Positions 2,427-54,827 of a DNA stretch of 64,000 bases are shown here, one piece after another. A program made the position numbers and the translations under genes. The stretch covers positions 101,047-165,046 of the forward strand of contig CAZEYD010000001.1 of assembly GCA_964516745.1 (NCBI GenBank). The letters run 5' to 3'. The notes under the pieces are model-generated. The model worked only from the letters and a program-made list of their open reading frames with translations, had not been told where the DNA came from and made no database searches. Numbering within the stretch: the first letter of the stretch is position 1; every line of letters starts with the position of its first letter. The stretch is from Candidatus Woesearchaeota archaeon. GTDB taxonomy: Archaea; Nanobdellota; Nanobdellia; Pacearchaeales; GW2011-AR1.

Positions 2427-2427
2427 G

Positions 2428-5562: not shown

Positions 5563-5581
5563 ATATTTTTAACCTCTTCGG

Positions 5582-13987: not shown

Positions 13988-13999
13988 TTTGAAGAAAGT

Positions 14000-14257: not shown

Positions 14258-14433
14258 TTCTTTAACCTCCTTATATTTATTACAGTTTCGAATTCAAATA
14301 GCAACGCAAAACTATCATCCAATATAATAGCCTTTTCTCTTTATAAAAATAACGGTTTATCAACGAGAAACAACAAATTCAGAGTAGAAGAAAAGAAACT
14401 GTTTTTTTCTTTTCCAAAAGCTTTACAACCAAC

Positions 14434-14475
14434 GTTTCTTTTTCCCAGGGCTTTTTCTTTACAAAGAAAAAGGCC
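14434..14475 (-). terminator. Conserved hairpin / oligo-U terminator-like element, copy 2 (abuts the stop of the 2139-aa gene); half-copy at 14401-14424
   Basis: Minus strand: GGCCTTTTTCTTTGTAAAGAAAAAGCCCTGGGAAAAAGAAAC. A perfect 10-bp stem (CTTTTTCTTT/AAAGAAAAAG) is followed by TGGGAAAAAGAAA. Confidence 0.5.
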
Positions 14476-27741: not shown

Positions 27742-27980
27742 AATTCCACTTAACAAAACCAAACAAAATCAACTATTTAACACTTATCACATAACCTTAT
27801 CCAAAAACTAAATATTAGAGATACTCTATTAGAAAAAACTTGTATTCGTTTAGATTTTTCATAAAAAAATCAAACACCTAGCACAGACAAACACACCAAC
27901 GCAGGAGTCCTTTAGACAAACGACAAACAACAATTTAATGCACAATACTTAACTAACTATTTTTTGATTCCAAAGCTACT

Positions 27981-35373: not shown

Positions 35374-35745
35374 TCATTTTAAAAGCACCTTTATCTGTTT
35401 AATTAAAACCTCAGATTTCATTATCTCCCCTTCAACAATTTTCTTATTAAAAATAACAAATACGCTAATATTCCCATAATCTGCTTGCATTCTCAAATCA
35501 TATAAATGTCTTAAATGATCATAAAAAAATTCACCCAAAAACTTAGCACACAACTCCCAAATCTTCTGATGATTCTTCGGAACCTTTACCTCTTTAAACA
35601 TCAAATAAGCAATAACAGCCTTCTCAAAAGAAAAATACAAACGATTAGCTGAAGTCTTTAAACTCAAATTAAGATTATTTCTTGCTACCTTCAAAAATTC
35701 ATCTGCAACTTCTAATTCATTTAAATATCTTTTTTCCAATCTCAA
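35374..35745 (-). CDS. HEPN-domain protein (pair A)
   Basis: All-helical 123 aa. It has the A..FL..A..NL start, VPKNHQKIWEL (conserved His helix) and LYDLRMQADYG (R-x4-Y), as in classical archaeal HEPN partners of minimal nucleotidyltransferases. It overlaps the upstream NTase by 29 nt. Confidence 0.7.
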   Translation of the reverse strand: MRLEKRYLNELEVADEFLKVARNNLNLSLKTSANRLYFSFEKAVIAYLMFKEVKVPKNHQKIWELCAKFLGEFFYDHLRHLYDLRMQADYGNISVFVIFNKKIVEGEIMKSEVLIKQIKVLLK

Positions 35746-36505
35746 CCCCCACCTTCTTTAAATCATTTATATTTTTAACTTTATATTTTTTATTAAAAAA
35801 ATCCAAAGCATCCAATTTAGTCTTTGGAAGAAATCCCTCCAAAAAACAATAAACATAAGACAAATTCACCAAAGCACTATCAAAAAGTTCCTTATCTTTT
35901 CCAACTATCAAATCATATACAGAATTCACAAATTCAAAATAATGCTTCTGAGCCTTAGAATATTCTAAAACATAAGACGACTGATAAATAACCACCCCAT
36001 TAAATAAATTATCAAAATTAAAACTATCTTTATGAAAATTTAAAATTACTCCAAAAGATCTCTCAATTTTACTTTTCATATCATTTAAAGATTTAAGGTC
36101 CTCAACTTTAAGATTATCACCAAGCAAAAGAATATCAATATCATTAAATTTCTTCCCCTTTAAAACACTTCCAAAAAGCAAAGCAGCTTTTATTTTCTTC
36201 TTATCAAATAAGGAGAAAACTAGAACATCAACCACAAGTTTTACAAAAGAATCCAAAGACTTAAACTCCATCGAATCAAGATAATATTTAAACTGTAAAA
36301 CAGAATTATCCCTTGTTAAACCAACAATCCTTTGATTACCATAATTTTTAATTCTAATAAATCCTCTCTCCTCAAGAAACCTTAATGCTTCAAAAGAAGA
36401 ATTTCTCCCAGTTTTAGCTTCACGAATAAGAACCTCTATACTTTTTTCTTCACCACTAAGAAGAATCTTTTCCATCAACTTAAGCATACTCTTTTGATAT
36501 TTCAT
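35717..36505 (-). CDS. wHTH + minimal nucleotidyltransferase (MNT) protein (pair A)
   Basis: The N-terminal ~70 aa are wHTH-like (SIEVLIREAKTGRNSSFEALRFLEERGFIRI). NTase signature LLFGSVLKGKKFNDIDILLLGD (GS-x9-11-DxD). Confidence 0.75.
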   Translation of the reverse strand: MKYQKSMLKLMEKILLSGEEKSIEVLIREAKTGRNSSFEALRFLEERGFIRIKNYGNQRIVGLTRDNSVLQFKYYLDSMEFKSLDSFVKLVVDVLVFSLFDKKKIKAALLFGSVLKGKKFNDIDILLLGDNLKVEDLKSLNDMKSKIERSFGVILNFHKDSFNFDNLFNGVVIYQSSYVLEYSKAQKHYFEFVNSVYDLIVGKDKELFDSALVNLSYVYCFLEGFLPKTKLDALDFFNKKYKVKNINDLKKVGVEIGKKIFK

Positions 36506-36553
36506 TGTATTCTTATAATACCCTACTGTATTCTTTTAATATTATAAACTTTC

Positions 36554-36620
36554 CTATTATCAACCAATCCATAGACAAAATCTTTTTTCCAACACCTAAT
36601 ATTTGTTTATTCTTATTCAT
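36554..36620 (-). pseudogene. Fossil of a LamG-cassette 5' end (signal-peptide region)
   Basis: The minus strand from 36620, ATGAATAAGAA..AAAGATTTTGTCTATGGATTGGTTGATAATAGG, aligns with ATGAATAAGAAAATTTTGATTTTGTCGATTGGGATGGTGTTGTTGATTGG at 32745 and 35337. No ORF follows. Confidence 0.4.
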
Positions 36621-36640
36621 TTTTATTTAACCTTTATTTA

Positions 36641-36760
36641 ACCAATCATCCTCATACCAAACTCGCCTAATCCTCAAACACAATTAATTTCTTTTCACTC
36701 ACCATAATCTCACCTAACAAAACCAAACAAAATCAATTAATTAATACTTATCACATCGCA
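36641..36760 (-). pseudogene. Fossil of a Bro-N gene start plus its upstream leader
   Basis: 36706-36760 aligns by eye at roughly 85% identity with 27742-27795 (..AACAAAACCAAACAAAATCAA..TTATCACAT..). From the ATG at 36705: MVSEKKLIVFED*, then WYEDDW in another frame. This is a deleted version of MVDEKKLIVFEDKKIRRVW.EDxWW. Confidence 0.6.
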
Positions 36761-36842
36761 TTCTCCATAAATCAGCTAGTTTCTGTTATTGTCATCTGTT
36801 CACGGTTATTTATTTACAGTCAACCGTTTTTGACTTCAAACA

Positions 36843-39800
36843 TCATCGTCCCTTGTCGTATAATAATTTCACTTCAGTATCCGACAACGCTCTATTGTAA
36901 ATTTTAGTACTAGCAATATTTCCAACAACCAAATAAGTTGAACCATCGTTACTAGCTCCAATTCTTGTAGGAGATGAAGCAATGACATAAGCAGGCAAAT
37001 TATATTGTTTGTTAAATTCCCCATTAACAAATACCCTAACTACACTCCCATCATACGAAGCAACAAGATGCCACCATTCATTCAACGTTCCAGTAATTCC
37101 AGTATCACCGGCAGTCCAACCCAGTCCTGCATTGGCTCCAATCGTTGCAACAAGAGTATTAGCAGCAGACATCCCAATCCAAAATTCACTATTTCCAACA
37201 CTAGTATCCGTAGGATTTTTATGCAAAGTACACCTATAAGTTCCAGCTCCACCAGTCATTCTAAACCAAGAGGAAACTGTTAATCCATCTGGATTAGAAG
37301 GTAGAAAATCATCATTAATTTTTATATAGTCATTAACAAAACTCGCACCATCCTCCCCAATCGTCGCACCATAATTCTGCCCATCATTACTATACGGAGT
37401 CCTATCCGCCACAACCTCAGAACCAACAGTTTCAGTCTTAACATCATCAAGAGTCAACGGCATATCTAAAACCAAACCCTTTGTCAAAGAAGACGCAGCA
37501 GCCTTAGGCTCATACGCATCATAAATAGATTCTATCTCGTCAGAAGAAAGAGCATAGTTATAGATACGGAAATCGTCAATTGAGCCACTGAACCATCTTG
37601 CAGAATCTGTTGAAAAACCTCTACCAATATTAATGTTTGAAAAGGTTGAAGGCCAAGATGTATGAGATGCATTTAATTTATTATCACCATCGATATAAGC
37701 ATATAAACGATTATTTGTTTTATCTCCCACAATACTAATATGATACCATGTATCTTCTGCCAAATCTGTAACTATTGTTTCCCCTCTCCAAGTGCTATCT
37801 AAGGAAACGCCTACATTTAGCTGACCTCCTGTGTATTGCTCAATTCTAACTCCAGCATTTGAAGAACCAGAAACTGGGAACTCTGTATGCAATATGTTTC
37901 TATAATTAGAAACACTAGTCGAATAAAACCACAATCCTATTGTAAAATCTTCAATATTATCAATATTAACAATATCAATATAATCTCCCCCATCAAAACT
38001 CATCGCACCTTCACTCTTTCCCATCCTATCCGTCGCCAACGTCGCCCCATAAATAATACCATTATTTCCATTTGTAGTTTTATCAATCATATCATTTAAT
38101 TCAGACACAGAATCTTCTCTAATAAAAACATACATTATCCCATCATCATATGCATCATTTGGAGATAACAATGTCTCTGTCATTAAACTTCCACCACCAT
38201 TAGTTCCAAGTGTACCCCTTATAGCATTTTCTTGACAACTACCTGTAGTACTTGGAAATGATACTTCGTTATACCAATTCCCCCCGTCCCCCCAACAACC
38301 AATTCCACCAGCCTGATTACATGACCCAACAGATACTTTATTATACCAAATTCTAAATGGATCATTACCATTACCATTTGTTTGAAATATTAAATTTGAT
38401 CCATACCAATTAGACGCATCTGCATTATTTGTATAACTTCTTGTCCAGCTAGGATTAGCATTGTTTATAGTTCTAGTTGTCTGACTTTTTAAGGTTCCAG
38501 TATTTGTACCTAAAAACGCTGCCGCCATTCTTTTAACTTGTCCAGAAGTATATCTGTAATCTATTAAAATCTCATCCCAATTTGTTACATCATAATATGT
38601 AGGAGATAAATAATCATCATTGTTCGATAAAGAACCTTGCTCTGTAGAAGCTGTCCAAAAAGATGTGCCCCATTGTTGTGTTGTCGCATCATTAGTGTTT
38701 AATCTTAATGCCATCGTCCACCCACCACCATCCGTCGTCATATCACAATAAACCTGATACGAATCCTCACCACCAGGACCATCAGGATCAATTGTATAAA
38801 CTCCATCACCATAAGAATCACCACTATCAAGAATAGCCTTACACGACCACGACCAATCTGGCTTAACACTATCCCCACTCATATCCCAATGCCCAACCAA
38901 CCCCTTACCCGACTTTATCGTCAACTTGGGATTATACGAATCATACAACTTCCCAATCTCACTTTCAGATAACGCACGATTATAGATACGAACATCGTCG
39001 ATTAAGCCGTTGAAATATACATCACTCCCATGTCCTCCAGTTGCTATCTTAGGGCTAACGGAACTCACTAGGTATGCTTGACCTGTAGATTTAGTCTCTT
39101 CCCACTCACCATCAAGATATCTTTTCAAACTAGTTGTATCAAATGTCCCAACAACATGATGCCACTCACCATCTTCAATATCCGTCCCAGTATATGCATC
39201 CCAATAACCACTATTATCACCTTTTCTTGCTGAAAATGCAGGAACTCCTTGTCTAATTCTCATAGCTATCCCAGCTGAGCCCACCCCAGTCCCAAGAGTG
39301 ACAACACCACCTTCCGAAGTAGTTCCATCAGTTTTTATCCACATAGAAAGAGTCATAGCATTCTCATTATTCAAATCCGTTGCATCACTCCCTAAATCAA
39401 TATAATCATCTCCTCCATCAAAATCCATCGCACCCTCGCTCTTCCCCATTCTATCAGTCGTAAAAGTCGCACCAAGAACCGTCCCATCATTTTCATTCGG
39501 AGTTTTATCCTTTTGTATAGTAGACTTTCTTACCCACATTGTCAAATGCATCCCAGTCACACTATTTGTTCCATGTTGCGATTCTCCACCAAATTGACCA
39601 TGGTAGTTCGGATTAAAGTCATTATGCGTAGCTGCATTAGAAGAAGTAAAGGTAGCCCTATCTACATCATTATTCTCATTGTCATTATGCCAAATACGGA
39701 GATAACTTTGTTCAAAATAACCACCACTAGCAACACCAACCGAGTATGTTGCAGGATATTGGGCATAATACCAATAGTCTACTTGGCCACCTCCAGGGTC

Positions 39801-40475
39801 TGCATTACCAAGCATGTCTCGTATATTATTATGACTTCCTGTATTTACGATTAGCTGGTCTTCCCTAGGAGCGGTTGATTTAAACATCATCTCTACAAAA
39901 GGAACCATATCGTAAGCTTTACTTTTTCCCGTTCCAGATGGTGAGGTAAGAGCGGTCGTATACCCTTCCTGCCACCAACCATCCCACCGAGAGTGATATG
40001 TTGTATCCCTATTATCTGCAGCATGCACTAAAGTCCAACCACCACCATCCGTCGTCATATCACAATAAACATCAAATGAATCCTCACCACCAGAACCATC
40101 AGGATCAATAGTATAAACACCATCCCCCGTAGAATCTCCATAATCAAGAATAGTTTTACAAGATCTATCTGCTTCAACACCATACCCATCCAACTCCCAA
40201 TGACCAACCAAGCCCTTCGACAATGAATCCCCACTAGTCAAAACCGTCACAGCCAACACAGTCCCGACCGCCAAAATCATCACGACCGCCAAAATTAAAA
40301 GAAACATTCTCCTGTTTACCCGTTTACCTGCAATCTGTTTTTCTGTAATACGTCTTCCATCTTTATGGTTCCCCGTTTTCCTGTTCTTCTGTCCCCCCGA
40401 CAAACCGACAAACCGCCTCGTAGAGGTTCTCGCACCTCCTTGGTAACCAGCCGACAATCCGATTTTCTTAACCAT
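36843..40475 (-). CDS. Secreted lectin-domain protein, 1210 aa as drawn: (basic leader?) - TM/signal - fibrinogen-like - LamG - fibrinogen-like - LamG - LamG
   Basis: The ATG at 40475 overlaps the HEPN stop (ATGGTTAA). The paralog-like hydrophobic signal starts only at M57 (ATG 40307, MFLLILAVVMILAVGTVLAVTVLTSGDSLSKGL), so the true start is uncertain. It has two YCDMTTDGGGWT cores. LamG ends IDDVRIYNRALSESEIGKLYDS, IDDFRIYNYALSSDEIESIYDAY and IASTKIYNRALSDTEVKLLYDKGR*. Confidence 0.85.
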   Translation of the reverse strand: MVKKIGLSAGYQGGARTSTRRFVGLSGGQKNRKTGNHKDGRRITEKQIAGKRVNRRMFLLILAVVMILAVGTVLAVTVLTSGDSLSKGLVGHWELDGYGVEADRSCKTILDYGDSTGDGVYTIDPDGSGGEDSFDVYCDMTTDGGGWTLVHAADNRDTTYHSRWDGWWQEGYTTALTSPSGTGKSKAYDMVPFVEMMFKSTAPREDQLIVNTGSHNNIRDMLGNADPGGGQVDYWYYAQYPATYSVGVASGGYFEQSYLRIWHNDNENNDVDRATFTSSNAATHNDFNPNYHGQFGGESQHGTNSVTGMHLTMWVRKSTIQKDKTPNENDGTVLGATFTTDRMGKSEGAMDFDGGDDYIDLGSDATDLNNENAMTLSMWIKTDGTTSEGGVVTLGTGVGSAGIAMRIRQGVPAFSARKGDNSGYWDAYTGTDIEDGEWHHVVGTFDTTSLKRYLDGEWEETKSTGQAYLVSSVSPKIATGGHGSDVYFNGLIDDVRIYNRALSESEIGKLYDSYNPKLTIKSGKGLVGHWDMSGDSVKPDWSWSCKAILDSGDSYGDGVYTIDPDGPGGEDSYQVYCDMTTDGGGWTMALRLNTNDATTQQWGTSFWTASTEQGSLSNNDDYLSPTYYDVTNWDEILIDYRYTSGQVKRMAAAFLGTNTGTLKSQTTRTINNANPSWTRSYTNNADASNWYGSNLIFQTNGNGNDPFRIWYNKVSVGSCNQAGGIGCWGDGGNWYNEVSFPSTTGSCQENAIRGTLGTNGGGSLMTETLLSPNDAYDDGIMYVFIREDSVSELNDMIDKTTNGNNGIIYGATLATDRMGKSEGAMSFDGGDYIDIVNIDNIEDFTIGLWFYSTSVSNYRNILHTEFPVSGSSNAGVRIEQYTGGQLNVGVSLDSTWRGETIVTDLAEDTWYHISIVGDKTNNRLYAYIDGDNKLNASHTSWPSTFSNINIGRGFSTDSARWFSGSIDDFRIYNYALSSDEIESIYDAYEPKAAASSLTKGLVLDMPLTLDDVKTETVGSEVVADRTPYSNDGQNYGATIGEDGASFVNDYIKINDDFLPSNPDGLTVSSWFRMTGGAGTYRCTLHKNPTDTSVGNSEFWIGMSAANTLVATIGANAGLGWTAGDTGITGTLNEWWHLVASYDGSVVRVFVNGEFNKQYNLPAYVIASSPTRIGASNDGSTYLVVGNIASTKIYNRALSDTEVKLLYDKGR
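38110..38860 (-). other. Fibrinogen-like YCDxxxxGGGW domain region (copy 3 of 4)
   Basis: WSCKAILDSGDSYGDGVYTIDPDGPGGEDSYQVYCDMTTDGGGWTMAL. It occupies the slot that holds a CBM-like or other beta-domain in the two paralogs. Confidence 0.55.
39525..40175 (-). other. Fibrinogen-like YCDxxxxGGGW domain region (copy 4 of 4)
   Basis: RSCKTILDYGDSTGDGVYTIDPDGSGGEDSFDVYCDMTTDGGGWTLVHAADN...NSVTGMHLTMWVR. It is collinear with 23965-24625 in a tail-fibre-type gene. Confidence 0.65.
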
Positions 40476-40941
40476 TCAAAACCACCTCTACTTTTTCAAC
40501 AATTTCCTTAGATTTAATAACCAAAATATCAAGTAACTCCTTGTTAACTTCTGTTTCAATTCCATATTGAAATTCCTCTCTCAAAGATTTAGCATTTTTA
40601 TTTGTCATCTGCTCAGTAGTTCTAATAAAAGCAACATCATCCAAATCCAAATCAATATCTTTAATTTCAATCAAATATTCAATGACGCTAATTGTACATT
40701 CATGATTCTTAGATTCATAACCTCTATCAAACAAAATAGCTAATAAAGAATGATACATTGCATAATACAATTGAGAAACAGCCCAATCTTCAAACCCTGA
40801 TCTAATACTAAGATCAGCCGCTTTCAAATTATGTTTCGCTTTCTTAATATGTCCCTCAGCAACACCCCTATCAGAACTAATCTTTTTCATTCTCTTTTCA
40901 TTTTTTAAACACCAATCCAATTTCGACTTATAATCTCGCAT
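40468..40941 (-). CDS. HEPN-domain protein (pair B)
   Basis: 157 aa, helical. AEGHIKKAKHNLKAADL start, GYESKNHECTISVI His helix, SLREEFQYG (R-x4-Y). It overlaps the NTase by 14 nt and the downstream giant ORF by 8 nt. Confidence 0.7.
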   Translation of the reverse strand: MRDYKSKLDWCLKNEKRMKKISSDRGVAEGHIKKAKHNLKAADLSIRSGFEDWAVSQLYYAMYHSLLAILFDRGYESKNHECTISVIEYLIEIKDIDLDLDDVAFIRTTEQMTNKNAKSLREEFQYGIETEVNKELLDILVIKSKEIVEKVEVVLNG

Positions 40942-41503
40942 CCTTTAACACCTCCACAAAAATATCTTCACCTTTCAGAACAACACCTGTCTTAATTATA
41001 TCCAGAATAGATTTCCTTTTTAATTTGATTTCTTTTATCAAATCGTTTTTCGTTAAAATCAAAGGAACAACCGGCCTAGATCTAACTTTTGAAATATCCA
41101 AACACAATTTAGAAACTTCTCTTAAATTACAACCAGAGAACAACACATCCACATCATTAAACTTATTTTTTTTCAAAACAGAACCAAAAAGAACAATCAA
41201 ATCACAATTAAAATTATCTAAATCATTAGCATAAACACCAGAAAAACCTTTTAAATTTCGCCGACCCTCAATTAAAATTAATTCTATAACTTTAACTAAT
41301 TCTAAATTATCAAAATTAATTCTATAATATATCGCATTTCCCATCCTCTCAGGCAAAACCCATTTCTTCTTTTCCAAATCTTTCAAAATCTTAAAAGCAC
41401 TTCCAACACTAATCTCAAGCTCTTTCGAAATTTGATTTATATTTTTCAATTCGAAATACCTTAAAAGATAATTCAATATTTTGTTTGTATTTTTTGTCAC
41501 CAT
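40928..41503 (-). CDS. wHTH + minimal nucleotidyltransferase protein (pair B)
   Basis: wHTH-like NINQISKELEISVGSAFKILKDLEKKKWV. NTase signature LFGSVLKKNKFNDVDVLFSG. Confidence 0.75.
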   Translation of the reverse strand: MVTKNTNKILNYLLRYFELKNINQISKELEISVGSAFKILKDLEKKKWVLPERMGNAIYYRINFDNLELVKVIELILIEGRRNLKGFSGVYANDLDNFNCDLIVLFGSVLKKNKFNDVDVLFSGCNLREVSKLCLDISKVRSRPVVPLILTKNDLIKEIKLKRKSILDIIKTGVVLKGEDIFVEVLKDARL

Positions 41504-41522
41504 TTTCAGTTAAAATGAATAA

Positions 41523-41648
41523 TCATTCACTATTTATGAATGTTTCTCTTTTATTTACAATATCAAATATCAAATACTTCCCATCACCAAAATGCTTTGA
41601 TAATTTAGATAAAAAACCAGCATCTATAAAAACTAAAGTCTTATCCAT
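41523..41648 (-). pseudogene. 41-aa ORF resembling the N-terminus of an NYN/LabA-like domain protein (probable truncated remnant)
   Basis: Hand translation: MDKTLVFIDAGFLSKLSKHFGDGKYLIFDIVNKRETFINSE*. GGAGGT SD lies 4-5 nt upstream. The V-F-I-D-(A/G)-x-(F/Y/N)-L start is NYN-like, but the ORF stops after 41 aa. Confidence 0.3.
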
Positions 41649-41671
41649 AAATACCTCCAACAATTCTATCT

Positions 41672-45500: not shown

Positions 45501-48500
45501 ACGCAAAAGTCATTGGCCCTTCAAAAAGTCTCAAATCATCTATATACATATAATCATCTGAATCAGCCACATTAGTTGTTAACCACCAAGTTATCATAAT
45601 TCTTCTATCTTCTCTTGCAGTAAAAGTTCTTGTATACTGATGCCAAGAATCATCACTTGTTAATGCATTTGTAAATACATAGCTTGTTCCATCGTGAAAA
45701 CCTATTACTTTCTCTAAAGTATTTGTTGATGAAGAATTATACCAAAACGAAATTGTATATGTTTTAGAATCTGTAGAAATTCCTCTAGGGGGAATATATT
45801 GATAGATATATGAATATGTTCCAGTTGAAGTAAATTTACCTGAATAAGTTCCTGTTTTCACAATTGTTGATTCTCTTTCACTTATTGTTCCTCCATTTTT
45901 TGTCCATCCATCTGGAAGAGTTGAAGTTCCCGCAGTCCAACTTTCTAAATCACCATTAACAACAAGGTTTTGTGAAGAAGTCTCTGAAAATGCTTTACCT
46001 GGAGTATTCGATGCAGTCGTAGATAATAACCCACTAGTATCTACATATAATGCATTATTTTGAATTCTAAAATCACCATTAACATCAAGTTTTGCATTTG
46101 GAGCATTAGTCCCAATTCCAACTTTGTCAGGAATATACACTTCCCCACTATCTGAATCCAAAGTCAGATCACCTGATACATCACTAATTAATGAACCACC
46201 TACCTTCAAATAACCTATCGCACCATTACCTACTGTCAAACCAGGATTTGCTGTACTCGTAAAACTAGTAGCGGTTGCCGTCGTTGCACCTCGACCAGTT
46301 ACTGTAGCTAAAGTATCAGATTCAATAGCAGCACTAGTATTCACCGCATCCAACTGCGATTTCGTAACCGCATCCGTCGCAGCCGTCCCATTATCTAAAC
46401 CAGTAATCTTATTTCCTCCCATCGCAACATTACCCGTCATTGTCAAACCGGCAAAGGTTGGAGAACTAGTAGTCAAAACATTTTGATCCATATCATAAAG
46501 CTCATTAGCACCTTGACCAGTATCAAGAGTCGCAGCATAAACACTCCCAGTAAAGTTCGCATCGCCAACGACATTCAACGCATTCGCAGGCGTTGCCGTT
46601 CCAATACCAACTCTCTTATTCTGCACACCACCAGCGCCATCACTCTGAGCATAAATCGTCATAACATTATCCCTATCAATCTTAAACGCATATCCCTCTG
46701 GACTTCCTATATCCGCATCCGACGTCACCGGCATATCAACAAACGTAACCAAACCAGAATCCGCACTAAACTCAAAACTCCCAATATTCAACGCCGCTCC
46801 AACCTCAATCTGATTCTCAGAATTAACCTTAAACATATTAACAACACCGTCACCAGCAGCATTCTTCGCAGAAATCCATCCATCATTTGAAATCTGCAAA
46901 GGTGTTGTTGGGTCAGTTACGTTGATACCAAAATAATTAACATTCGTCAAATTCTTTCCGTTCAAATTAACAGAACCAGTCGCACCAGTGTAAGGAACGT
47001 AACCCGAAGCCGATGCAGCAGCACTTAAACACGTACCATCATTCAAACAAATATCCCCACTAGCATTAATATTCCCAGAAACATCTAAAGCTTCACCGGG
47101 AGTCATTCCAATTCCAACATTTGCTTCTAATATTTCAATATTTCCAGCAGTATCAAAAACTATTCTCTCTGCTCCAGAAATACCAATATATTTATCATCT
47201 GCCATATAGACATTTTGGTCTGTCTCAATATCTCCCGTAACATAAAAATCATTATCTCCTGTTGCTGTAGTAGCTGTACCACTTCCAATATATACAGGTT
47301 GATTTGCAACATCATTAATTCTTAACGCTGCCCCAGAAGAATCTAAATTATCTCCAGCAATTGTTAAGTCTGAATAAGTAGTAATTGCACCAACAGAATT
47401 TGCAGAGAGAAACATTTGAGATCCTTCAACTCTACCCTTATTAACATTTTCTTCGGTTAAAACCCCAACGGAATAAAATGATGCATGATTATACAATCTT
47501 ACTTTTGGAACTCCACTATCCAAATAAAATTCAACATGATTAGAGCTAGTTCCCGCCTCGTATTCTTTATAAATATGAAAATTTGTACCATCACCATAAA
47601 AATATGCAACCGCACCTGTTTGTGTTCCAGTGCTAATAATCAGTCCTTTTACCTTATAACTCCTAGTAGGAGTAAAAGCAGCACCAGTAGAATCAACCAA
47701 TATTGCCGGAGTAGTAGTATTTACTGAATAAGTTTTTTCATAAGTTTTATAGACATTATTATAATTAATACCATAACCATTTGAAAGAACTAAATTCCCC
47801 GTCATCGTATCACCAGATTTTAAAACATAGTCACCAGCAGCGCCGGCAACAGTACTCAAACACTCACCACTATTCAGACAAACATCACCACTAGCATTAA
47901 TATTACCAGAAACATCTAAGGCCTCACCCGGAGTCATTCCAATACCAACTTTTCCAGTCTTCTCAACAACGAATAATGCATTTGCACCATATTCTGGTTG
48001 GCTACCAGAAGCATCATATCCAATTTGAAAAGAATTAAATGAACCACCATACGGCATTCCAGAGAACCACTCCTCTCCTGAATAAGTTACATCTTTATAC
48101 ACAGTTCCTATTCCTCTACCTTCATATCCAAACATTTCTACCATAGCTGTTCTAGCTGGAGAACTTGCAGTATTTGTTGCAGTTATATACATTGTGGCAG
48201 CACTTTGAGAAGAACTTCCTAATCTAAGACTACTTCCATTAACATCCAAAGTTGATCCAGGACTAGTCGTCCCAATACCTACATTACCATCCATAAACCC
48301 AATATTTCCTCTTAAATTACCAATTTCTACTCCTCCTAAATTATGTTTTATATAAAATTGACTTGGGTCTCCTGCACCAGCATCATTACGAGATGTTAAA
48401 ATATATTCACTATCCGATGCCAAAACATCTATTGCACCTATAGAAGTTGCCAAAACCCCAAATGGAGTTACCGGATTACTAATCCCAATCCCAACATTCC

Positions 48501-48765
48501 CTCCAGAATAACTCAAATTAGTCCCAGTCATCGTCCAATAGCTAACAGCCGAAGAATCAATATTCGTAAGCAATGAACCATCACCCATAAAATATCCAGC
48601 TGTAATATTCCCATCCGCATTCAAATTTCCAGTAGTTCCATTCACAACAAAATAGTTTTGTGTAGAATCTGACTCATTCCTTATTACGAAATCCTTAGCA
48701 GAAACAAAACTAACAGCTAACAACAACACAAGAATCAAAAGTATTTTATTTTTATTTACCATCAT
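42547..48765 (-). CDS. Giant secreted tail-fibre-like repeat protein, 2072 aa (contains a CBM-like domain and two R1 blocks)
   Basis: Signal MMVNKNKILLILVLLLAVSFVSA|KDF. It has 9 VGIGT motifs, several (K/N)ITGLxxGxxxxDAVTxxQL motifs and a CBM-like start LVVNGDLESWTAGTSTLPDGWTKNGG. ATGA overlap with the upstream giant gene. Confidence 0.85.
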   Translation of the reverse strand: MMVNKNKILLILVLLLAVSFVSAKDFVIRNESDSTQNYFVVNGTTGNLNADGNITAGYFMGDGSLLTNIDSSAVSYWTMTGTNLSYSGGNVGIGISNPVTPFGVLATSIGAIDVLASDSEYILTSRNDAGAGDPSQFYIKHNLGGVEIGNLRGNIGFMDGNVGIGTTSPGSTLDVNGSSLRLGSSSQSAATMYITATNTASSPARTAMVEMFGYEGRGIGTVYKDVTYSGEEWFSGMPYGGSFNSFQIGYDASGSQPEYGANALFVVEKTGKVGIGMTPGEALDVSGNINASGDVCLNSGECLSTVAGAAGDYVLKSGDTMTGNLVLSNGYGINYNNVYKTYEKTYSVNTTTPAILVDSTGAAFTPTRSYKVKGLIISTGTQTGAVAYFYGDGTNFHIYKEYEAGTSSNHVEFYLDSGVPKVRLYNHASFYSVGVLTEENVNKGRVEGSQMFLSANSVGAITTYSDLTIAGDNLDSSGAALRINDVANQPVYIGSGTATTATGDNDFYVTGDIETDQNVYMADDKYIGISGAERIVFDTAGNIEILEANVGIGMTPGEALDVSGNINASGDICLNDGTCLSAAASASGYVPYTGATGSVNLNGKNLTNVNYFGINVTDPTTPLQISNDGWISAKNAAGDGVVNMFKVNSENQIEVGAALNIGSFEFSADSGLVTFVDMPVTSDADIGSPEGYAFKIDRDNVMTIYAQSDGAGGVQNKRVGIGTATPANALNVVGDANFTGSVYAATLDTGQGANELYDMDQNVLTTSSPTFAGLTMTGNVAMGGNKITGLDNGTAATDAVTKSQLDAVNTSAAIESDTLATVTGRGATTATATSFTSTANPGLTVGNGAIGYLKVGGSLISDVSGDLTLDSDSGEVYIPDKVGIGTNAPNAKLDVNGDFRIQNNALYVDTSGLLSTTASNTPGKAFSETSSQNLVVNGDLESWTAGTSTLPDGWTKNGGTISERESTIVKTGTYSGKFTSTGTYSYIYQYIPPRGISTDSKTYTISFWYNSSSTNTLEKVIGFHDGTSYVFTNALTSDDSWHQYTRTFTAREDRRIMITWWLTTNVADSDDYMYIDDLRLFEGPMTFAYNDKPLSASGNETHYGDLYNIGGNVGIGTTTPVGTLNVIGDGNFTGALTVDTINTGNGAMNLGDDSTIDNSDTNSIPTADAVYDFVASYMATGGTGDIYVDITGDTMSGNLSMGSHYITGLGNGSAAQDAVTYSQLQAISGTMTGDYVPYSGATGSVDLNSKNLTNVNRLGIGVSDPTTPLQLANDGWISAKNAVGDGTINMFKVNSENQIEVGAALNIGSFEFSADSGLVTFVDMPVTADASAGTSESYVFKVDGDNIMTIYSESDGMDSIQNKRVGIGTATPKNTLNVVGDANFTGAVYGATLDTGQGANELYDMDQNVLTSSSPTFSGLTMTGNVAMSGNKITGLADGSADNDAVTYSQLQSVNSTVTGDYVPYTGATKAINLGVQFLTTTGAVSTGALTSTTINTGQGANELYAMNQDVLNTSSVKFAGINTTSNITMSGNYITGLANGSLPQDAVTKAQLDAVNTTASVAESDPIWTLAKSNYYNTTQTDSQIVAANTSMKDYVDIRDTVANLHTHDAANITSGTLDIVRLPTTVQNIVGSTGLPNTFDLIVYGDSDKYYPVQIYGGNQNVMRTIKIWRSYSELHPADWYSSTHGGGLMLTWQGNFGGWGGAIYYDRLEEFTEQYNPTVGNAYIYTHSIGYVFMLRGGGSGGAIYHFASDQSLNGYGTTGPQVAYNTSIKFYDNANPSYIVYAPAPVSVQDTSRLDGMKRKKQSEFDNRYINTVGDTMTGDLAMSGNKITGLADGTANNDAVTYSQLQAVNTSAAVESDPYWTGNYSNVAFINKANTFGAYNQNFDSGTLFVDAANNRVGIGITSPYYQLDNRFSNPDIVFSGGGGGDWGSDGLRVENVNGTIGTMATLQFRVGDADTHIAAVRRGSNDADLGFFFEGVEKMRINNNGSMTFMTGAAINEFSTDTNLAGNSDLAVPTEKAVKTYVDDAVGAGVSSGISGTTNYLAKFNSTNSVTTSSVIDDDEGVRIGL
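44400..45010. repeat. Shared fibre block R1, second copy in the 2072-aa gene (core 44660-44990)
   Basis: ..SDPTTPLQLANDGWISAKNAVGDGTINMFKVNSENQIEVGAALNIGSFEFSADSGLVTFVDMPVTADASAGTSESYVFKVDGDNIMTIYSESDG..NKRVGIGT.. Confidence 0.8.
46330..47125. repeat. Shared fibre block R1, first copy in the 2072-aa gene (core 46610-46930)
   Basis: Nearly identical DNA to 18286-18985 (for example, compare 46621-46925 with 18481-18785). Confidence 0.8.
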
Positions 48766-51700
48766 ATTTCAATAATCACATCCCCCGTTACATGCATAGC
48801 CGCCTCAGGCGACGTTTGATTTATACCAACTTTACCATCTCCTCTAAATGTCATTAAATTATCCTCCGAACCACTTACTTCTGATCTAATATGTAATAAA
48901 TTATTATCACCACTTACTGAATTACCATCAAAGAAAAAACTAAACATTGAGGCAGTCTCTTGAAAATACATTTTATATTGATCAGTACCTGGAGAATCAA
49001 AATACATTCCTGCACCGGCAGTTTCATCATATAAATGCAATTGTCCTATCGGATTCGTCGTCCCAATTCCTACCCTCGCATTATTCGTATCAACAAATAA
49101 ATCACTACCACCAACACTAAAATTATTATTTCCTAAAACTACATTAGCATCAGCACCAGTATAAGGAACATAATCACCAGATACCACCGAACTAACAGCA
49201 TCTAACTGCGCCTTCGTCACCGCATCCGTCGCGGCCGTCCCGTTACCCAAGCCAGTAATCTTATTTCCCCCCATCGCGACATTCCCCGTCATCGTCAAAC
49301 CAGCAAAAGTTGGAGAACTAGTAGTCAAAACATTTTGATTCATATCATAAAGCTCATTAGCCCCTTGCCCAGTATCAAGAGTTGTAGCATAAACAGCCCC
49401 AGTAAAATTCGCATCACCAATAACATTCAAGGCATTCTTCGGAGTAATCGTCCCAATACCAACTCTCTTATTCTGCACTCCACCAGAACCATCAGCCTCA
49501 GAATAAACCGTCATAATATTATCCCCATCAACCTTAAACACATAACTCTCAGAATCCCCAGCGCTAGCATCAGCAGTCACCGGCATATCCGCAAAAGTAA
49601 CCAAACCAGAATCAGCAGCAAACTCAAAACTCCCGATATTCAATGCCGCCCCAACCTCAATTTGATTCTCCGAATTAACCTTAAACATATTAACAACACC
49701 ATCACCCGCAGCATTCTTCGCAGAAATCCATCCATCATTTGAAAGTTGTAGAAGAGTTGTTGGGTCGGAAACACCAAGACCTAATCTCTTATTCGTATTA
49801 TCCCATGTAAAATTTCCATCATAAGTTAAAGTGTCAGCATCAGACCAAAACGCAGCCTTATTCGCAGCACCCGAACCATCCAAACCAGACCCCGCCGCAG
49901 AATCAACATAAGCTTTAACCGCCTTCTCCGTAGGAACAGCTAAATCGGAATTACCAGCCAAAGCAGTATCCGTCGAGAATTCATTAATCATAGCACCATT
50001 AAGAAGAGTTAAGTTACCTTCGACATCTAATCTACCATCTATCCTCACAACTGTATTAGCCTCAGTACCACCAATTATAAAACCATCATTTGAACCGACA
50101 GCGACTGCACCATCCGCATGTTTATATTGTATCCAACCATTCTGTGTATAACCTGCAATATTATCACTAAAATTTATTGTTGCTCCAATTGCATTTGTTG
50201 ATGTTTTAATATACAATCCATCATCCGATAAATGAGTCAATCTTCCCGTCATAGTATCTCCCGTCTTCAAAACATAATCACCAGCAGCACCAGCAACAGT
50301 ACTCAAACACTCACCACTATCCAAACAAACATCACCCGTAGCGTTAATATTACCAATGACATCTAGAGCTTCACCAGGAGTTGATGTACCAATACCAATA
50401 TTACTATCATTATCCAAAACTAAAACATTTTTATTACTCGCAAAACCAAATTTTAATCCTCCTAAATCATTCAAACCATAGTATTCCCCATAACCAGTTG
50501 AAGAATTATATCCCACAGTGATCCTATTCCCTCCACTATTTTGAAAACTCATAAAATCCTCTACTGACAATCCTTGATCCGGCGTCGCCGTCCCAATCCC
50601 AACATTACCATCATTATAATAAATATCACTTCCTGTCGTCGTCCACTGACTAGTCCCAGCAACAGCATCACTCAAACAAGCACCATTAGCACAAATATCG
50701 CCACTAGCAGTAATATTACCAACAACATCCAAGGCTTCACCAGGATTAATTGTTCCAATACCTACGTTACCACCTACAGGATTAAGAGATAAATATTTAA
50801 CAGAATTATCATTATTTTGTGCTTGTATCCAAGTATATGCCGCACTCCCTACTCCAAACATTAATTTTGTACTTGTTGTTGATGATGCATCTAAAGCTAA
50901 TGCAGAATTTGTTAAAGTTGTTGCACCAGTAGAACTTGCCGCAGCCGCCGTTCCTTTGTCTACTTCCAATTTGGCATCTGGACTATTCGTCCCAATACCA
51001 ACAGACGCAGCACCTATAGTTTGTCTAGTATTAGAAGTATCAAACGCAGTAACATCTGTAACCGATGAAGTTGGTAGGCTCTTCAGGATATTAGCTGATA
51101 ATTCCGATTTAATCAAACCATCAAACCATACCTCCGTAAAAGGATACGGATTAGCAGATTGATATCTTAATGCAATATAATTATCTCCACTATAAGTAAC
51201 AGTAACCAAAGACCATTTTTCATCATTTTGAACACCCTGTTTAGTATTAATATAACCCCTTTTAGTATCTACATCATTAGCAGTAGTAACTAATATATCT
51301 ACTATAGACGCCTGATAATTACCAGAACTCCTATGCCCATAAAGAGTACCAAGAACTTCATTCGTACCCCTGCTATTATTCACAAGTAACCAAACTTGAT
51401 CCCCAACATTTTCTTGCCAAGTTAATGGTTTATATTGAACAAAGTTTCCACTACTAATTTGGCCATTGTCAGCAACTGTTACACCACTATCTTGAACAAT
51501 CTTACCAGTCGTAGAATCAAATCTTGCAATAGCATTATCAGTTGAAGATGCTGGACCAACAACATAACTATCAGCAGCACCAACACTAACAGCATCCAAT
51601 TGAGATTTAGTCACAGCATCCTGAGCTGCCGACCCATTTCCTAAACCAGTAATTTTATTAGTCCCCATCGCAATATTTCCCGTCATAGTCAAACCAGTTA

Positions 51701-53468
51701 ATGTTCCAACACCACTCCCATCAATACGAACTGTCCCATCACCAGTACCAGTCCTAATACCAAAAATCGCATTAACACCAACATCATCAACAATTCTCAT
51801 ATGAACCTTGTTTCCATCTTCTGGCTCATAAAAATCAAGTCCTTCAGCTGTTCCCCTAATCGCCATATCAATACCAGCATCAACAGCACCATCAAAAGTA
51901 ATCGCACGACTATTAGACGAATAATAATTCATATTCAAATCTCCCGTCATAGTATCCCCAGATTTCAAAACATAATCACCAGCAGCACCAGCAACAGTAC
52001 TCAAACACGCACCACCATCAATACAAATATCATCACTAGCAGTAATATTACCAACAACATCCAAAGCCTCACTAGGATCACTCGTTCCTATTCCTACTTT
52101 TCCATCATCTGTAATTCTCATTTTCTCTGAAGCATCTGCATTATATCGTGTTGTTCCAAAAGACATTCCCCAATGCTGACCATAAGAATCTTCCTCATTA
52201 ATTGATTTAATAAATCCACGAATTCCATCTTGTTGACTACTGCTATCCTCTCCATAAAATTCAATCTTCCCTACAGTATCTCCTATAACCCAATCATTTG
52301 AATCTTTAGTAGAAGTTAATCTAAAAGTAGTATTTAGAAGAGTACTAACATCTAGTGTTTTATTTGGACTAGTCGTCCCTATTCCAACATTTCCAGAAGA
52401 ACCATCAATAGTTAATTTATCTGTAGGATCTACTGCTGAACCCGGCGACATTTGTATCGTAAAATCAACAGAACCATCGCTTTGTCTTACACTGTTTAAG
52501 TTTGTTATTCCATTTTCAGCTGTTATTCCTGTTGTAGAAACAAATCTAAGTTGTGTTCCGGTCCCAGTAGTTGTATTTGAATTTTGTAATACCAGTTGAT
52601 TTATTAATTCCCCTCCATCAGTATTAGTAATTTGTAACTTTGTAGCTGGTGCAGCCGTCCCTATTCCAACATTTCCACTAGCATCAATCACCATATGATC
52701 AACTCCATTCATATCGAAATGCAACTTAGCACCAGAATAATATCTACTAATATACGCATTTTCAGTTCCACCAGAATTATAAGATAATTCAAAACGACTG
52801 CTTGAATCATATCCTCTACCTAGTGATAATCTACTTCTTGCTGAATCGGTATGCCAAAAATTAAGTTGATTTATAGAATCATCGTATATATGGAATGATG
52901 TATCCGGCGTCCCCGTCCCAATTCCCACATTTCCCCCGGAATAACTCAAATTCGTTCCCGTCATCGTCCAATAGCTAACAGCCGAAGAATCAATATTCGT
53001 AAGCAATGAACCATCACCCATAAAATAATCAGCTGTAATGTTTCCCGTCGTCAACAAATTCTGAGCACCAATATTAACCTCACTATCAAACTCAACACCA
53101 GCAATACTAACATTCTGAGCTCTAAAAGCATAAGGACTCGTTGTTAAATTAATCCTCGGTGTCATTTCTAAATCGGTTCCAACCTTAATCCCCAAAAAAT
53201 ATTGTGACTTAAAATCTAAACCACTAAGATCCAAAATCACATCATAAATACCTTCCGTATCAGGAGTCACAGATTTTAAACTAGAATACAAAGCACTCCC
53301 ACCACTAGTAACAGAATAAACAGAGAAATTAATATTCGTAGCCACAGAAACAGGAACACCAGAATCATCAGTCAACTTACCATGAATATTAAATGTCTGA
53401 GGGATTGCCAAAATACTAGGCAAAACAAAGATACAAAATATAAACATAAAAATTATTTTACTTCTCAT
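48762..53468 (-). CDS. Giant secreted tail-fibre-like repeat protein, 1568 aa
   Basis: Signal MRSKIIFMFIFCIFVLPSILA. It has 11 VGIG motifs. It shares an N-terminal block with the next gene (YFMGDGSLLTNIDSSAVSYWTMTGTNLSYSGGNVGIG) as well as R1 and other blocks. Its ATG lies inside the last 11 nt of the HEPN gene. Confidence 0.85.
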   Translation of the reverse strand: MRSKIIFMFIFCIFVLPSILAIPQTFNIHGKLTDDSGVPVSVATNINFSVYSVTSGGSALYSSLKSVTPDTEGIYDVILDLSGLDFKSQYFLGIKVGTDLEMTPRINLTTSPYAFRAQNVSIAGVEFDSEVNIGAQNLLTTGNITADYFMGDGSLLTNIDSSAVSYWTMTGTNLSYSGGNVGIGTGTPDTSFHIYDDSINQLNFWHTDSARSRLSLGRGYDSSSRFELSYNSGGTENAYISRYYSGAKLHFDMNGVDHMVIDASGNVGIGTAAPATKLQITNTDGGELINQLVLQNSNTTTGTGTQLRFVSTTGITAENGITNLNSVRQSDGSVDFTIQMSPGSAVDPTDKLTIDGSSGNVGIGTTSPNKTLDVSTLLNTTFRLTSTKDSNDWVIGDTVGKIEFYGEDSSSQQDGIRGFIKSINEEDSYGQHWGMSFGTTRYNADASEKMRITDDGKVGIGTSDPSEALDVVGNITASDDICIDGGACLSTVAGAAGDYVLKSGDTMTGDLNMNYYSSNSRAITFDGAVDAGIDMAIRGTAEGLDFYEPEDGNKVHMRIVDDVGVNAIFGIRTGTGDGTVRIDGSGVGTLTGLTMTGNIAMGTNKITGLGNGSAAQDAVTKSQLDAVSVGAADSYVVGPASSTDNAIARFDSTTGKIVQDSGVTVADNGQISSGNFVQYKPLTWQENVGDQVWLLVNNSRGTNEVLGTLYGHRSSGNYQASIVDILVTTANDVDTKRGYINTKQGVQNDEKWSLVTVTYSGDNYIALRYQSANPYPFTEVWFDGLIKSELSANILKSLPTSSVTDVTAFDTSNTRQTIGAASVGIGTNSPDAKLEVDKGTAAAASSTGATTLTNSALALDASSTTSTKLMFGVGSAAYTWIQAQNNDNSVKYLSLNPVGGNVGIGTINPGEALDVVGNITASGDICANGACLSDAVAGTSQWTTTGSDIYYNDGNVGIGTATPDQGLSVEDFMSFQNSGGNRITVGYNSSTGYGEYYGLNDLGGLKFGFASNKNVLVLDNDSNIGIGTSTPGEALDVIGNINATGDVCLDSGECLSTVAGAAGDYVLKTGDTMTGRLTHLSDDGLYIKTSTNAIGATINFSDNIAGYTQNGWIQYKHADGAVAVGSNDGFIIGGTEANTVVRIDGRLDVEGNLTLLNGAMINEFSTDTALAGNSDLAVPTEKAVKAYVDSAAGSGLDGSGAANKAAFWSDADTLTYDGNFTWDNTNKRLGLGVSDPTTLLQLSNDGWISAKNAAGDGVVNMFKVNSENQIEVGAALNIGSFEFAADSGLVTFADMPVTADASAGDSESYVFKVDGDNIMTVYSEADGSGGVQNKRVGIGTITPKNALNVIGDANFTGAVYATTLDTGQGANELYDMNQNVLTTSSPTFAGLTMTGNVAMGGNKITGLGNGTAATDAVTKAQLDAVSSVVSGDYVPYTGADANVVLGNNNFSVGGSDLFVDTNNARVGIGTTNPIGQLHLYDETAGAGMYFDSPGTDQYKMYFQETASMFSFFFDGNSVSGDNNLLHIRSEVSGSEDNLMTFRGDGKVGINQTSPEAAMHVTGDVIIEI
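49195..49800. repeat. Shared fibre block R1, copy in the 1568-aa gene (core 49445-49780)
   Basis: ..SDPTTLLQLSNDGWISAKNAAGDGVVNMFKVNSENQIEVGAALNIGSFEFAADSGLVTFADMPVTADASAGDSESYVFKVDGDNIMTVYSEADGSGGVQNKRVGIGT.. Confidence 0.8.
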
Positions 53469-53898
53469 TCCCGAAAACCTCCTGTAACTCTTTTCTAATT
53501 TTATCTACCTTAACGCTTGTCAATTTGGAAAAAACATCTCTTGATAAAACAAAGAAGTCATAAACATTATCCCAAATCAAATTCAAATCACTCTTATTAA
53601 CATCTCTATCAACATAATATTGTAAATTTCTCCTAACCAATAACGCCCTATCAATTAAATCAAAATACTTCTCCGAATAAAATTCAGATAAAAACCTCTT
53701 CATAAACTCTAAAGAACAACCATGAATATCACATCTAATACCAATTTTTTGCATAACAGCATAGAGAGAATAATAAATTGAATAATAACCCGCAGAAATA
53801 CTAAACCTAACACTTTCCTTCCTTTCCCTATCCATTGTTCCAAAAGCCTCTTCCGCCATTTTTAAATATCCAGAACCAATTCGTTCATTCGGCTCCAC
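53458..53898 (-). CDS. HEPN-domain protein (pair C)
   Basis: 146 aa, helical. YLKMAEEAFGTM start, GIRCDIHGCSLEF His helix, LLVRRNLQYYVD (R-x4-Y). Confidence 0.65.
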   Translation of the reverse strand: MEPNERIGSGYLKMAEEAFGTMDRERKESVRFSISAGYYSIYYSLYAVMQKIGIRCDIHGCSLEFMKRFLSEFYSEKYFDLIDRALLVRRNLQYYVDRDVNKSDLNLIWDNVYDFFVLSRDVFSKLTSVKVDKIRKELQEVFGNEK

Positions 53899-53933
53899 TA
53901 ATTTTAAACCATCCTTAGCCCTACTACACCATT

Positions 53934-54509
53934 TTAAACTAACGATTTTATCACCTCACCAACAAACAAATCCCCACCCTTTACCAAAACATGATTTTTC
54001 AATATCTCCTGGTAAATCTCTTTATTACTTTTAATCATCTGAGCAAAATCCCTAGAAGAAACATTAAATATCTGAACATCTATCCCATATTTCTTACCTA
54101 ATTTTTGAATACTCAAAGAATCCACCTTCCCAACAATTAATAAATCCAAATCCGAATTCTTAGTCGCCTTATCACTAGCATAACTACCAAAAACACAAAC
54201 GATATCACCACCAACTTGCCTAAAAAAATCAATAAGTCTCTTATTCTTTTCCAGAAATTCCAAACTATTAAAATTCTCAAATAACAAAACATTCTCAATC
54301 AAAAGAGGATTCAGTAAATTTAACTCATAATATTTTCTATTCCCACTCTGAATAGAACTAAGAATCCCATCATTCTCTAAATCCGTCAAAGTCAAAGCTA
54401 TATTCTTTTGACTTAAAGACACCTTCCCAACTAATTCTCTCCCATAAATCTTAGAAGTATATCCGTTCAAGAACATTTTCATCACCTCAAAATATTTGTT
54501 GTGTAACAT
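53934..54509 (-). CDS. wHTH + minimal nucleotidyltransferase protein (pair C)
   Basis: wHTH-like LSQKNIALTLTDLENDGILSS. NTase signature VFGSYASDKATKNSDLDLLIVG. TTTATAAG box lies ~35 nt upstream. Confidence 0.75.
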   Translation of the reverse strand: MLHNKYFEVMKMFLNGYTSKIYGRELVGKVSLSQKNIALTLTDLENDGILSSIQSGNRKYYELNLLNPLLIENVLLFENFNSLEFLEKNKRLIDFFRQVGGDIVCVFGSYASDKATKNSDLDLLIVGKVDSLSIQKLGKKYGIDVQIFNVSSRDFAQMIKSNKEIYQEILKNHVLVKGGDLFVGEVIKSLV

Positions 54510-54827
54510 CTTACTTATATGTGTAAATAATTACTTATAAATCCTCCTAAAAATTCGGTACTTATAGGTGCCTCAAAAGATAATAAAAAGTTTCTAAAAA
54601 AATAACCCTTCACCATCTATATTCCATAGATTTCTTCTATATAAATTTTAAGATTTCTTGATAATTTTCATAATAATAAACATCTCTACAACCTTTATTT
54701 TTATTTATATATATTAATTTCTGACATTTCCTCTTATTAATTTTATCTCTCCATCTACTAGGTAGAGAAAGAAACAAATTATATACTATCATAAAAATCC
54801 AAAATCAATTCCTTATATCTTCCCTTT

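Follow-up and report, generated by a model that had tools for sequence, protein, structure and literature searches.

Three divergent nucleotidyltransferase-HEPN pairs, probable self-regulated toxin-antitoxin-like cassettes, in a surface-protein and defence island of a DPANN archaeon

Archaeal genomic islands can hold clusters of multiple genes for minimal nucleotidyltransferases (MNT) and HEPN-domain proteins (PMC3710099, PMC6393860). In AF0298-like HEPN-T proteins the histidine of the HEPN motif is missing, and a second conserved histidine located further N-terminally is predicted to form an alternative RNase site (Anantharaman et al. 2013, PMC3710099). A 2026 survey lists PDC-M05 as an archaeal-enriched pair of a nucleotidyltransferase (NTase) and a HEPN protein, of unproven function or antiviral role, and also reports an enrichment of SoFic and PDC candidates among DPANN archaea (PMC12988326). 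Here we analyse a stretch of 64,000 nucleotides (the window) from a Candidatus Woesearchaeota archaeon of the Pacearchaeales (GenBank assembly GCA_964516745.1, contig CAZEYD010000001.1, positions 101,047 to 165,046), which carries three pairs (A, B and C) of an NTase with a winged helix-turn-helix (wHTH) domain and a HEPN protein. All three lie on the same strand as, and directly upstream of, a gene for a giant secreted protein, an arrangement first described in a prediction made from the DNA letters (hereafter the original prediction) and upheld here. We think it somewhat probable that these pairs are three autonomous, self-regulated MNT-HEPN modules of the toxin-antitoxin (TA) kind, candidates for a defence function, which belong to old families and reside in a hypervariable surface-protein and defence island of a Pacearchaeota/Woesearchaeota-like DPANN genome.

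The closest described systems each share some features with these modules. As in the type VII TA system MntA/HepT, the NTase is encoded first and the HEPN protein second, the reading frames overlap, the NTases have a Pol-beta GS...DxD core with Foldseek matches to 8xeo, 8xeh and 6m6w, and a Tyr is conserved in the HEPN motif region. Unlike MntA/HepT, the HEPN proteins belong to the PF05168/AF0298 type and have R-x4-Y where HepT has Rx4HxY, and the NTases carry an N-terminal wHTH and score about 20-24 bits against an equivalog cut-off of 60; a search of the three HEPN proteins against PF01934 (HepT) returned no match. The likeness to AF0298/UPF0332-type HEPN-T proteins with an MNT partner is closer, since HEPN_B matches 2hsb and the histidine pattern is exactly that described in PMC3710099; the subfamilies found here are, however, DPANN-specific, their NTase is fused to a wHTH, and family A has an extra helical bundle. 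With PDC-M05 the pairs share the two-gene architecture and a match of all three NTases to subunit A, whereas their HEPN partners match no PADLOC model. Finally, as in the known archaeal islands with MNT-HEPN clusters, several divergent pairs occur together with TA- or defence-like genes (Fic, Bro-N, NYN) in a single island, but this one consists mostly of genes for giant secreted LamG and YadA-stalk proteins, with the pairs as first cistrons. Judged by sequence, the modules are AF0298-type HEPN-T/MNT pairs that are PDC-M05-like for the NTase subunit only, a type already catalogued. The new details are conserved operators and, recurring in this DPANN lineage, islands in which surface-protein and TA genes are mixed; we found no paper that describes them. 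Our literature search likewise returned no account of MNT-HEPN modules linked to giant surface genes in DPANN.

The six open reading frames (ORFs) of the pairs had been placed on the minus strand in the original prediction, and their coordinates, lengths and overlaps were all confirmed (Table 1). PDC-M05A (PDLC04368), a PADLOC model of a wHTH plus an NTase domain for which the library used has no curated cut-off, aligns nearly end to end with NT_A (7.1e-9), NT_B (3.7e-7) and NT_C (2.6e-15). Pfam matches NT_A to Polbeta (8.7e-7) and NT_C to NTP_transf_2 (1.2e-8), and NCBIfam adds an ArsR-type HTH for NT_C (1.7e-3); the Pfam matches of NT_B, to HTH_41/MarR/TrmB and Polbeta (2e-3), are all under cut-off. 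The GS...DxD core is intact in all three NTases and invariant within families: it reads FGSVLKGKKFNDIDIL in NT_A, with GS...DxD kept across 26 homologues, FGSVLKKNKFNDVDVL in NT_B, with FGS...FNDxD invariant in the family alignment and 753 detectable homologues, and FGSYASDKATKNSDLDLL in NT_C, with FGSYA...SDxD conserved and 120 homologues. The predicted wHTH at the N-terminus of each NTase was borne out, for NT_A by an AlphaFold model (pLDDT 91.9, pTM 0.84) with a winged helix at residues 4-63, two linker helices, an NTase core at 107-175 and a four-helix bundle at 184-260. The best Foldseek matches of this model in the PDB are MNT antitoxins or HEPN-MNT complexes (8xeo, 8xeh, 6m6w) and ArsR/SmtB-type repressors. 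The C-terminal bundle, which is confidently modelled, occurs in family-A NTases only and is absent from families B and C.

All three HEPN proteins have R-x4-Y in place of R-x4-H, plus a conserved histidine further N-terminal. HEPN_A matches Pfam HEPN at 6.2e-6 (26.8 bits, cut-off 22) and HEPN_B at 2e-12 (47.7 bits versus 22), the latter also matching PDB 2hsb (AF0298) at 1.8e-8. The two motifs are LRMQADYG and PKNHQK in HEPN_A, whose family comprises nine members adjoining A-type NTases, LREEFQYG and SKNHECT in HEPN_B, both at least 90% conserved among 59 family-B HEPN sequences, and VRRNLQYY with the upstream His in CDIHGCS in HEPN_C. A Pfam search with HEPN_C gave no match, and members of its family come up together with the B family in phmmer; a profile comparison of HEPN_C with HEPN_B by hhalign is not used as evidence, since the C set had recruited B members and the result was circular. 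In BLASTP, NTase identity is 31% for A/B and 27% for B/C, A and C give no match, and the HEPN proteins reach at most 23%. Judging by these identities, the pairs are not recent duplicates of each other, in agreement with the deep divergence that had been noted by eye.

HEPN_C differs from its relatives at the start. Its frame runs on upstream of the GTG for about 17 codons (53899-53949, minus strand), back to a stop codon, as GDKIVSLKWCSRAKDGLKLV, which is homologous to MDKIKWCLKQKGGLKLV, the N-terminus of the relatives' HEPN proteins. The ancestral ATG is now GGT, and the GTG start truncates the conserved N-terminal WC motif. Either HEPN_C would thus start 17 codons late, with loss of the WC motif, or the putative toxin gene is decaying.

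Each pair has its own promoter-like element in front of the NTase gene, composed of a TATA element and repeat or palindrome half-sites that differ by family and are kept whatever gene lies downstream. Before eight family-A homologues we observed the layout of pair A, with GTTTATAAGTATTAAAA.AGTATTAATAAGTATTAAAATAATACT running up to the ATG; AAGAATACA occurs three times in the window, twice in the pair A operator. Of 75 family-B NTases, each from a different species, 74 are preceded by the pair B motif, which occurs only once in the window. It is accompanied by a TATA box, TTTATAAA (TTTAWAWA within 16 nt upstream of the motif), at 66 loci. The motif stands 38-46 nt before the ATG, and the non-coding element as a whole about 38-60 nt before the NTase start (L006-L085 of our numbered loci). 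In family C, TTTATATATGTAAT..TTTACACAATTAAGTAAA adjoining the ATG is conserved among homologues, three TATAAGTA copies fall within 55 nt, and the mRNA of pair C is likely leaderless. None of the three operator motifs has a further copy near the other giant genes of the window. With operators that are family-specific and independent of context, the pairs look like autonomous, self-regulated cassettes. For the same reason, autorepression of the promoter in front of the pair is the best explanation of the wHTH, and not, as had been proposed, control of the downstream fibre operon.

The pairs mark the 5' end of a likely transcription unit, as predicted, with TATA and operator before the NTase and giant genes led by Shine-Dalgarno sequences. 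In none of the three units does a TATA-like element lie between HEPN and giant gene, and GGAG-type Shine-Dalgarno sequences precede the giants, as expected of internal cistrons. Oligo-T runs were discarded as terminators, being uninformative at 2.8 per kb and present even inside the pairs. Since no recognisable promoter or terminator follows HEPN and the giants have Shine-Dalgarno sites, the giants appear to be downstream cistrons of the cassette promoter, and pair and giant gene are likely co-transcribed.

The three junctions differ in detail. At pair A, the spacer between the HEPN_A stop and ATG 35337 is 36 nt; the original prediction gave 37 and had the position of the ATG right. This ATG is the real start of the 849-aa gene because the N-terminus is the same as in its 1119-aa paralogue (29386-32745), the two LamG proteins sharing an identical stretch of 26 residues, MNKKILILSIGMVLLIGVVFAVTVIS. 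At pair B, the 8-nt overlap of the 1210-aa ORF with the HEPN_B stop (ATGGTTAA) is real as sequence. Comparison with paralogues, however, puts the beginning of the signal anchor at Met57, which corresponds to ATG 40307, and the true start of the gene may lie there, 160 nt downstream, rather than at the overlap. The 160-nt spacer is GC-rich and has no TATA, and GGAG precedes ATG 40307. An RNA element at this junction was ruled out by folding (z = -0.99) and by Rfam scans, which were empty for the spacer and gave no match in the whole window. At pair C, the 1568-aa gene does start within the last 11 nt of HEPN_C, as had been noted, and GGAGG is found 10 nt upstream.

Table 1. Positions in the window of the three pairs, their promoter/operator elements, the giant genes that follow them and the small genes and remnants of the island.
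Feature	Position	Strand	Evidence or remark
Pair A promoter/operator	36506-36552	-	TATA-like AAAGTTTATAATATT, then two AAGAATACA repeats up to ATG
NT_A, wHTH + minimal nucleotidyltransferase + C-terminal four-helix bundle, 262 aa	35717-36505	-	ORF, Pfam, PADLOC, AlphaFold
HEPN_A, AF0298-type, 123 aa	35374-35745	-	29-nt overlap with NT_A
Secreted LamG protein, 849 aa	32788-35337	-	Pfam Laminin_G_3 6e-68; Shine-Dalgarno-like GGGAGAG before start
Pair B operator	41505-41541	-	ATTCA-N7-TGAAT-N3-ATTCA-N6-TGAA, ends about 1 nt before ATG region
NT_B, wHTH + nucleotidyltransferase, 191 aa	40928-41503	-	Pfam, PADLOC, alignment
HEPN_B, AF0298/UPF0332-type, 157 aa	40468-40941	-	14-nt overlap with NT_B
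LamG/fibrinogen-C surface protein, 1210 aa	36843-40475	-	Pfam
Pair C promoter/operator	54510-54541	-	TTTATAAGTAATTATTTACACATATAAGTAAG directly before ATG
NT_C, wHTH + nucleotidyltransferase, 191 aa	53934-54509	-	Pfam, NCBIfam, PADLOC
HEPN_C, 146 aa from GTG	53458-53898	-	BLASTP to HEPN_B 6.6e-7
Secreted fibre protein with YadA-stalk repeats, 1568 aa	48762-53468	-	Pfam; signal peptide at very N-terminus
Bro-N protein, 292 aa	41672-42550	-	Pfam Bro-N 5.8e-10; PADLOC PDC-S13 9.7e-114
Second intact Bro-N	20891-21799	-	70% identical to 292-aa Bro-N copy
Bro-N remnant, 350 nt	27391-27744	-	tblastn 2e-41
Bro-N N-terminal remnant, tiny, frameshifted	36642-36702	-	
Fic/DOC protein, 387 aa	28093-29256	-	PADLOC PDC-S04/SoFic-like; alone between giant-gene units
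NYN-domain N-terminal remnant, 41-aa ORF	41523-41648	-	just upstream of pair B

In the working of the cassettes that we propose, the wHTH-NTase, alone or with HEPN, would bind its own operator and repress its own promoter. By analogy with MntA/HepT, the NTase would neutralise the HEPN RNase, possibly via nucleotidylation of the conserved Tyr in R-x4-Y, and the giant genes would be transcribed as downstream cistrons from the cassette promoter. The cassettes may have gathered together with Bro-N, Fic and NYN genes and would survive only in the few intergenic gaps of the island. That they stand before giant genes would then mainly reflect the make-up of the island, 80% of which is giant genes on one strand; co-transcription would come as a by-product, which might bring a hitch-hiking or stabilising benefit, rather than as part of a dedicated control circuit.

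The composition of the island bears directly on this last point. Between 4657 and 63866 nearly all genes are on the minus strand, and nine ORFs of 860-3012 aa account for 47.6 of 59.2 kb (80%). Giants make up 9 of the 15 non-pair genes, which gives P(3 of 3) = 0.18 under an in-island null; the claim that the adjacency exceeds chance within the window thus does not hold. Three giant-gene units of the window have no pair, and a tblastn search with 266 NT/HEPN proteins detected no further or decayed pairs before other giants of the window.

The family-B sample comprises 80 loci from 80 species genomes (metagenome-assembled genomes of Pace-, Woese- and Nanoarchaeota). The pair is intact at 58 loci, mostly with the same 14-nt overlap, and 54 of these have a called downstream neighbour, which is on the same strand in 26 cases and on the opposite strand in 28. 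The next gene encodes at least 450 aa in 5 of 54 cases (background 10.4%) and at least 800 aa in a single one (1.9%, background 2.1%); ORFs of at least 800 aa make up an unremarkable 8.1% of the 940 kb of family-B flanks. Taken by itself, family B has no link to giant genes. Around about ten distant family-C loci from metagenomes we found no giants. In the pooled census, which covers 133 NT/HEPN dyads with the MNT in 5' position in 1.45 Mb of related sequence from other organisms, 125 dyads have a downstream neighbour, and this encodes at least 800 aa in 5 cases, compared with 18 of 1445 background genes (p = 0.03). A dedicated or maintained linkage, as the original prediction suggested, is not what these counts indicate.

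Some loci of relatives nonetheless resemble the window. At L135, L025, L117, L130, L134 and L086 the same pair families again stand before large secreted proteins, and the stop and start codons overlap or nearly abut. In L135, the closest family-B relative (82% identity), the next gene codes for a secreted fibre-type protein and overlaps the pair by the same 8 nt; this protein resembles the 1568-aa gene of the window and not the 1210-aa gene that pair B precedes here. L134 has a C-type pair with a HEPN 62% identical to HEPN_C, then a 706-aa secreted protein and a Bro-N 60% identical to the 292-aa copy, and so matches the window order of pair C, fibres and Bro-N. A-type pairs precede a 698-aa LamG protein at L117-L120 and a 996-aa protein, with a 4-nt overlap, at L130; they lie between a 2138-aa LamG protein upstream and a gene of at least 3645 aa downstream at L115/L116, and a 1208-aa LamG protein is found upstream of the pair at L124. 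L128, where an A-type pair stands in a housekeeping context, and L131 are without the LamG/fibre arrangement. The best comparator for the window is L086 (positions 1-18791 of JGI Ga0233437_1002471), a 19-kb island of a second organism with A-type, B-like and C-type pairs, LamG/fibre proteins and a Bro-N fragment; identities are 56%/68% for the A-type and 59%/52% for the C-type pair. Arrays of several different NT/HEPN pairs within the same islands are seen in relatives as well. At L130 (2498-7945), a diversity-generating retroelement with bAvd, reverse transcriptase, a target of the FGE-sulfatase fold and two NYN genes adjoins the A-type pair. The same locus has a further NT160+139 pair, whose overlap with the start of the FGE-sulfatase target gene is 4 nt long.

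Several observations weigh against the reading as autonomous TA-like cassettes. When the next gene is required to lie within 20 nt, to be secreted and to encode at least 450 aa, the pooled count is 7 of 125 pairs versus 12 of 1378 (odds ratio 6.8, p = 5e-4), so that tight coupling to such genes is 7-10 times as frequent for pairs as for other genes. The same pair family occurs with different cargo and different pair families with the same cargo, and this many-to-many pattern could mean that the junction has been repeatedly re-created or selected. As to module identity, the three HEPN proteins match no PADLOC model at E up to 10, including PDC-M05B, and the NCBIfam MntA_antitoxin equivalog (cut-off 60 bits) gives 19.8 bits for NT_A, 24.4 for NT_C and no match for NT_B. 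The seven tightly coupled cases represent five loci, mostly fetched as relatives of the island's A and C pairs, and in independent family-B loci tight coupling is at background (1/78). The excess is real in the sample but island- and lineage-bound, not phylogenetically independent, and we regard the link to giant genes as a weak, island-specific tendency and not as a dedicated system.

These data also bear on the possibility that each pair is the regulatory leader of a surface-protein operon, which would time the expression of costly adhesins, for example in response to stress or host contact, through an autoregulated promoter and possibly through cleavage of the polycistronic mRNA by the HEPN RNase. 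The pairs do hold the only recognisable TATA/operator of each unit, the Shine-Dalgarno-led giants overlap or abut HEPN, tight coupling to large secreted proteins is enriched in relatives, and the arrangement recurs with pair B in L135, with a C-type pair in L134, and with A-type pairs before the 698-aa LamG and 996-aa proteins. On the other hand, in relatives the gene after the pair is an ordinary one or lies on the opposite strand in about 90% of cases, operator conservation does not depend on what follows, the enrichment rests on the five island-related loci, and the loss of the HEPN_C start is easier to reconcile with a selfish module in decay than with an essential regulator. Because HEPN_C has lost its ancestral start and three giant units do without a pair, an obligatory regulatory role is disfavoured, and we consider a dedicated controller unlikely. 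A broader scenario, which we find doubtful, is that in this Pacearchaeota-like lineage giant adhesin or fibre operons, often closed by Bro-N, have repeatedly acquired autoregulated modules as first cistrons that bring the promoter, so that a TA switch gates the expression or retention of the host-attachment repertoire; the many-to-many pairing would then reflect selection of the junction and not ancestry.

Alternatively, pair, giant gene(s) and Bro-N could form an exchangeable unit, in which the pair stabilises the costly giants by addiction or travels with them in recombination. Consistent with this, the window shows the orders pair C-1568-2072-Bro-N, pair B-1210-Bro-N remnant and pair A-849-1119-Fic-Bro-N remnant, the same order is found in L134, the giants are recombining mosaic paralogues, and the same pair occurs with swapped cargo in L135 and L025. 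The many-to-many pairing of pair families and cargo leaves room for this reading as well as for a regulatory leader. Repeats, an integrase or another mobility signature were not seen at the unit borders, though no search was aimed at them; family B is mostly solitary and in unrelated contexts, and pairless units persist in the island. Moreover, post-segregational killing is not known to have been demonstrated for any chromosomal segment of these organisms, and we judge this explanation quite unlikely. Most improbable to us is a two-subunit nucleotidyltransferase in which HEPN is the substrate-binding partner (cf. kanamycin nucleotidyltransferase) for a small molecule or protein target, possibly surface-related: the canonical Rx4-6H histidine is absent, NT_A has its extra C-terminal helical bundle, conservation of family B is unusually high (47-82% identity among 80 species) and domesticated MNT-HEPN enzymes have been described (PMC3710099), but Arg and the alternative conserved His agree with the RNase site predicted for the AF0298 type, and wHTH plus operator, antitoxin-first order and a patchy, variable context are typical of TA modules.

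The surroundings of the pairs fit an island rich in surface-protein and defence-like genes. The window is archaeal, as it encodes the ribosomal proteins L44e and S3Ae at 2124-3174; its GC fraction is about 0.35, and it contains no tRNA genes. The giants have Laminin_G_3, fibrinogen-C, YadA-stalk and Gly-rich domains (Pfam) and N-terminal signal or anchor sequences, and are mosaic paralogues of one another. Internal blocks are 50-85% identical among giants, a similarity that indicates recent recombination or gene conversion. Across loci, the giants that flank pairs have only mosaic, domain-level similarity with no orthology established, and hence do not allow a clean synteny test.

Apart from the pairs, the small genes between the giants are all defence- or mobile-element-like. 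The 292-aa Bro-N gene closes the unit pair C-1568-2072 and lies outside the pairs proper, and Bro-N after giant genes is a repeated order in the window. The NYN remnant is 79% identical over 29 aa to the NYN protein found in L119 before a 1463-aa giant, and its 3' end overlaps the pair B operator. IMG/VR scans with the family A and C profiles detected no relatives, so that a viral origin of the pairs is unsupported.

DPANN archaea depend on attachment to host cells, and giant surface proteins are prime candidates for this attachment. As the evidence stands, the three pairs add three DPANN subfamilies to a known module, which is useful annotation and not a new system, together with predicted operator sequences for their wHTH domains and a description of a mixed surface-protein/defence island. 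If the cassettes really drive or stabilise the giant genes, this would give MNT-HEPN modules a new role and provide a handle on the control of the symbiont-host interaction.

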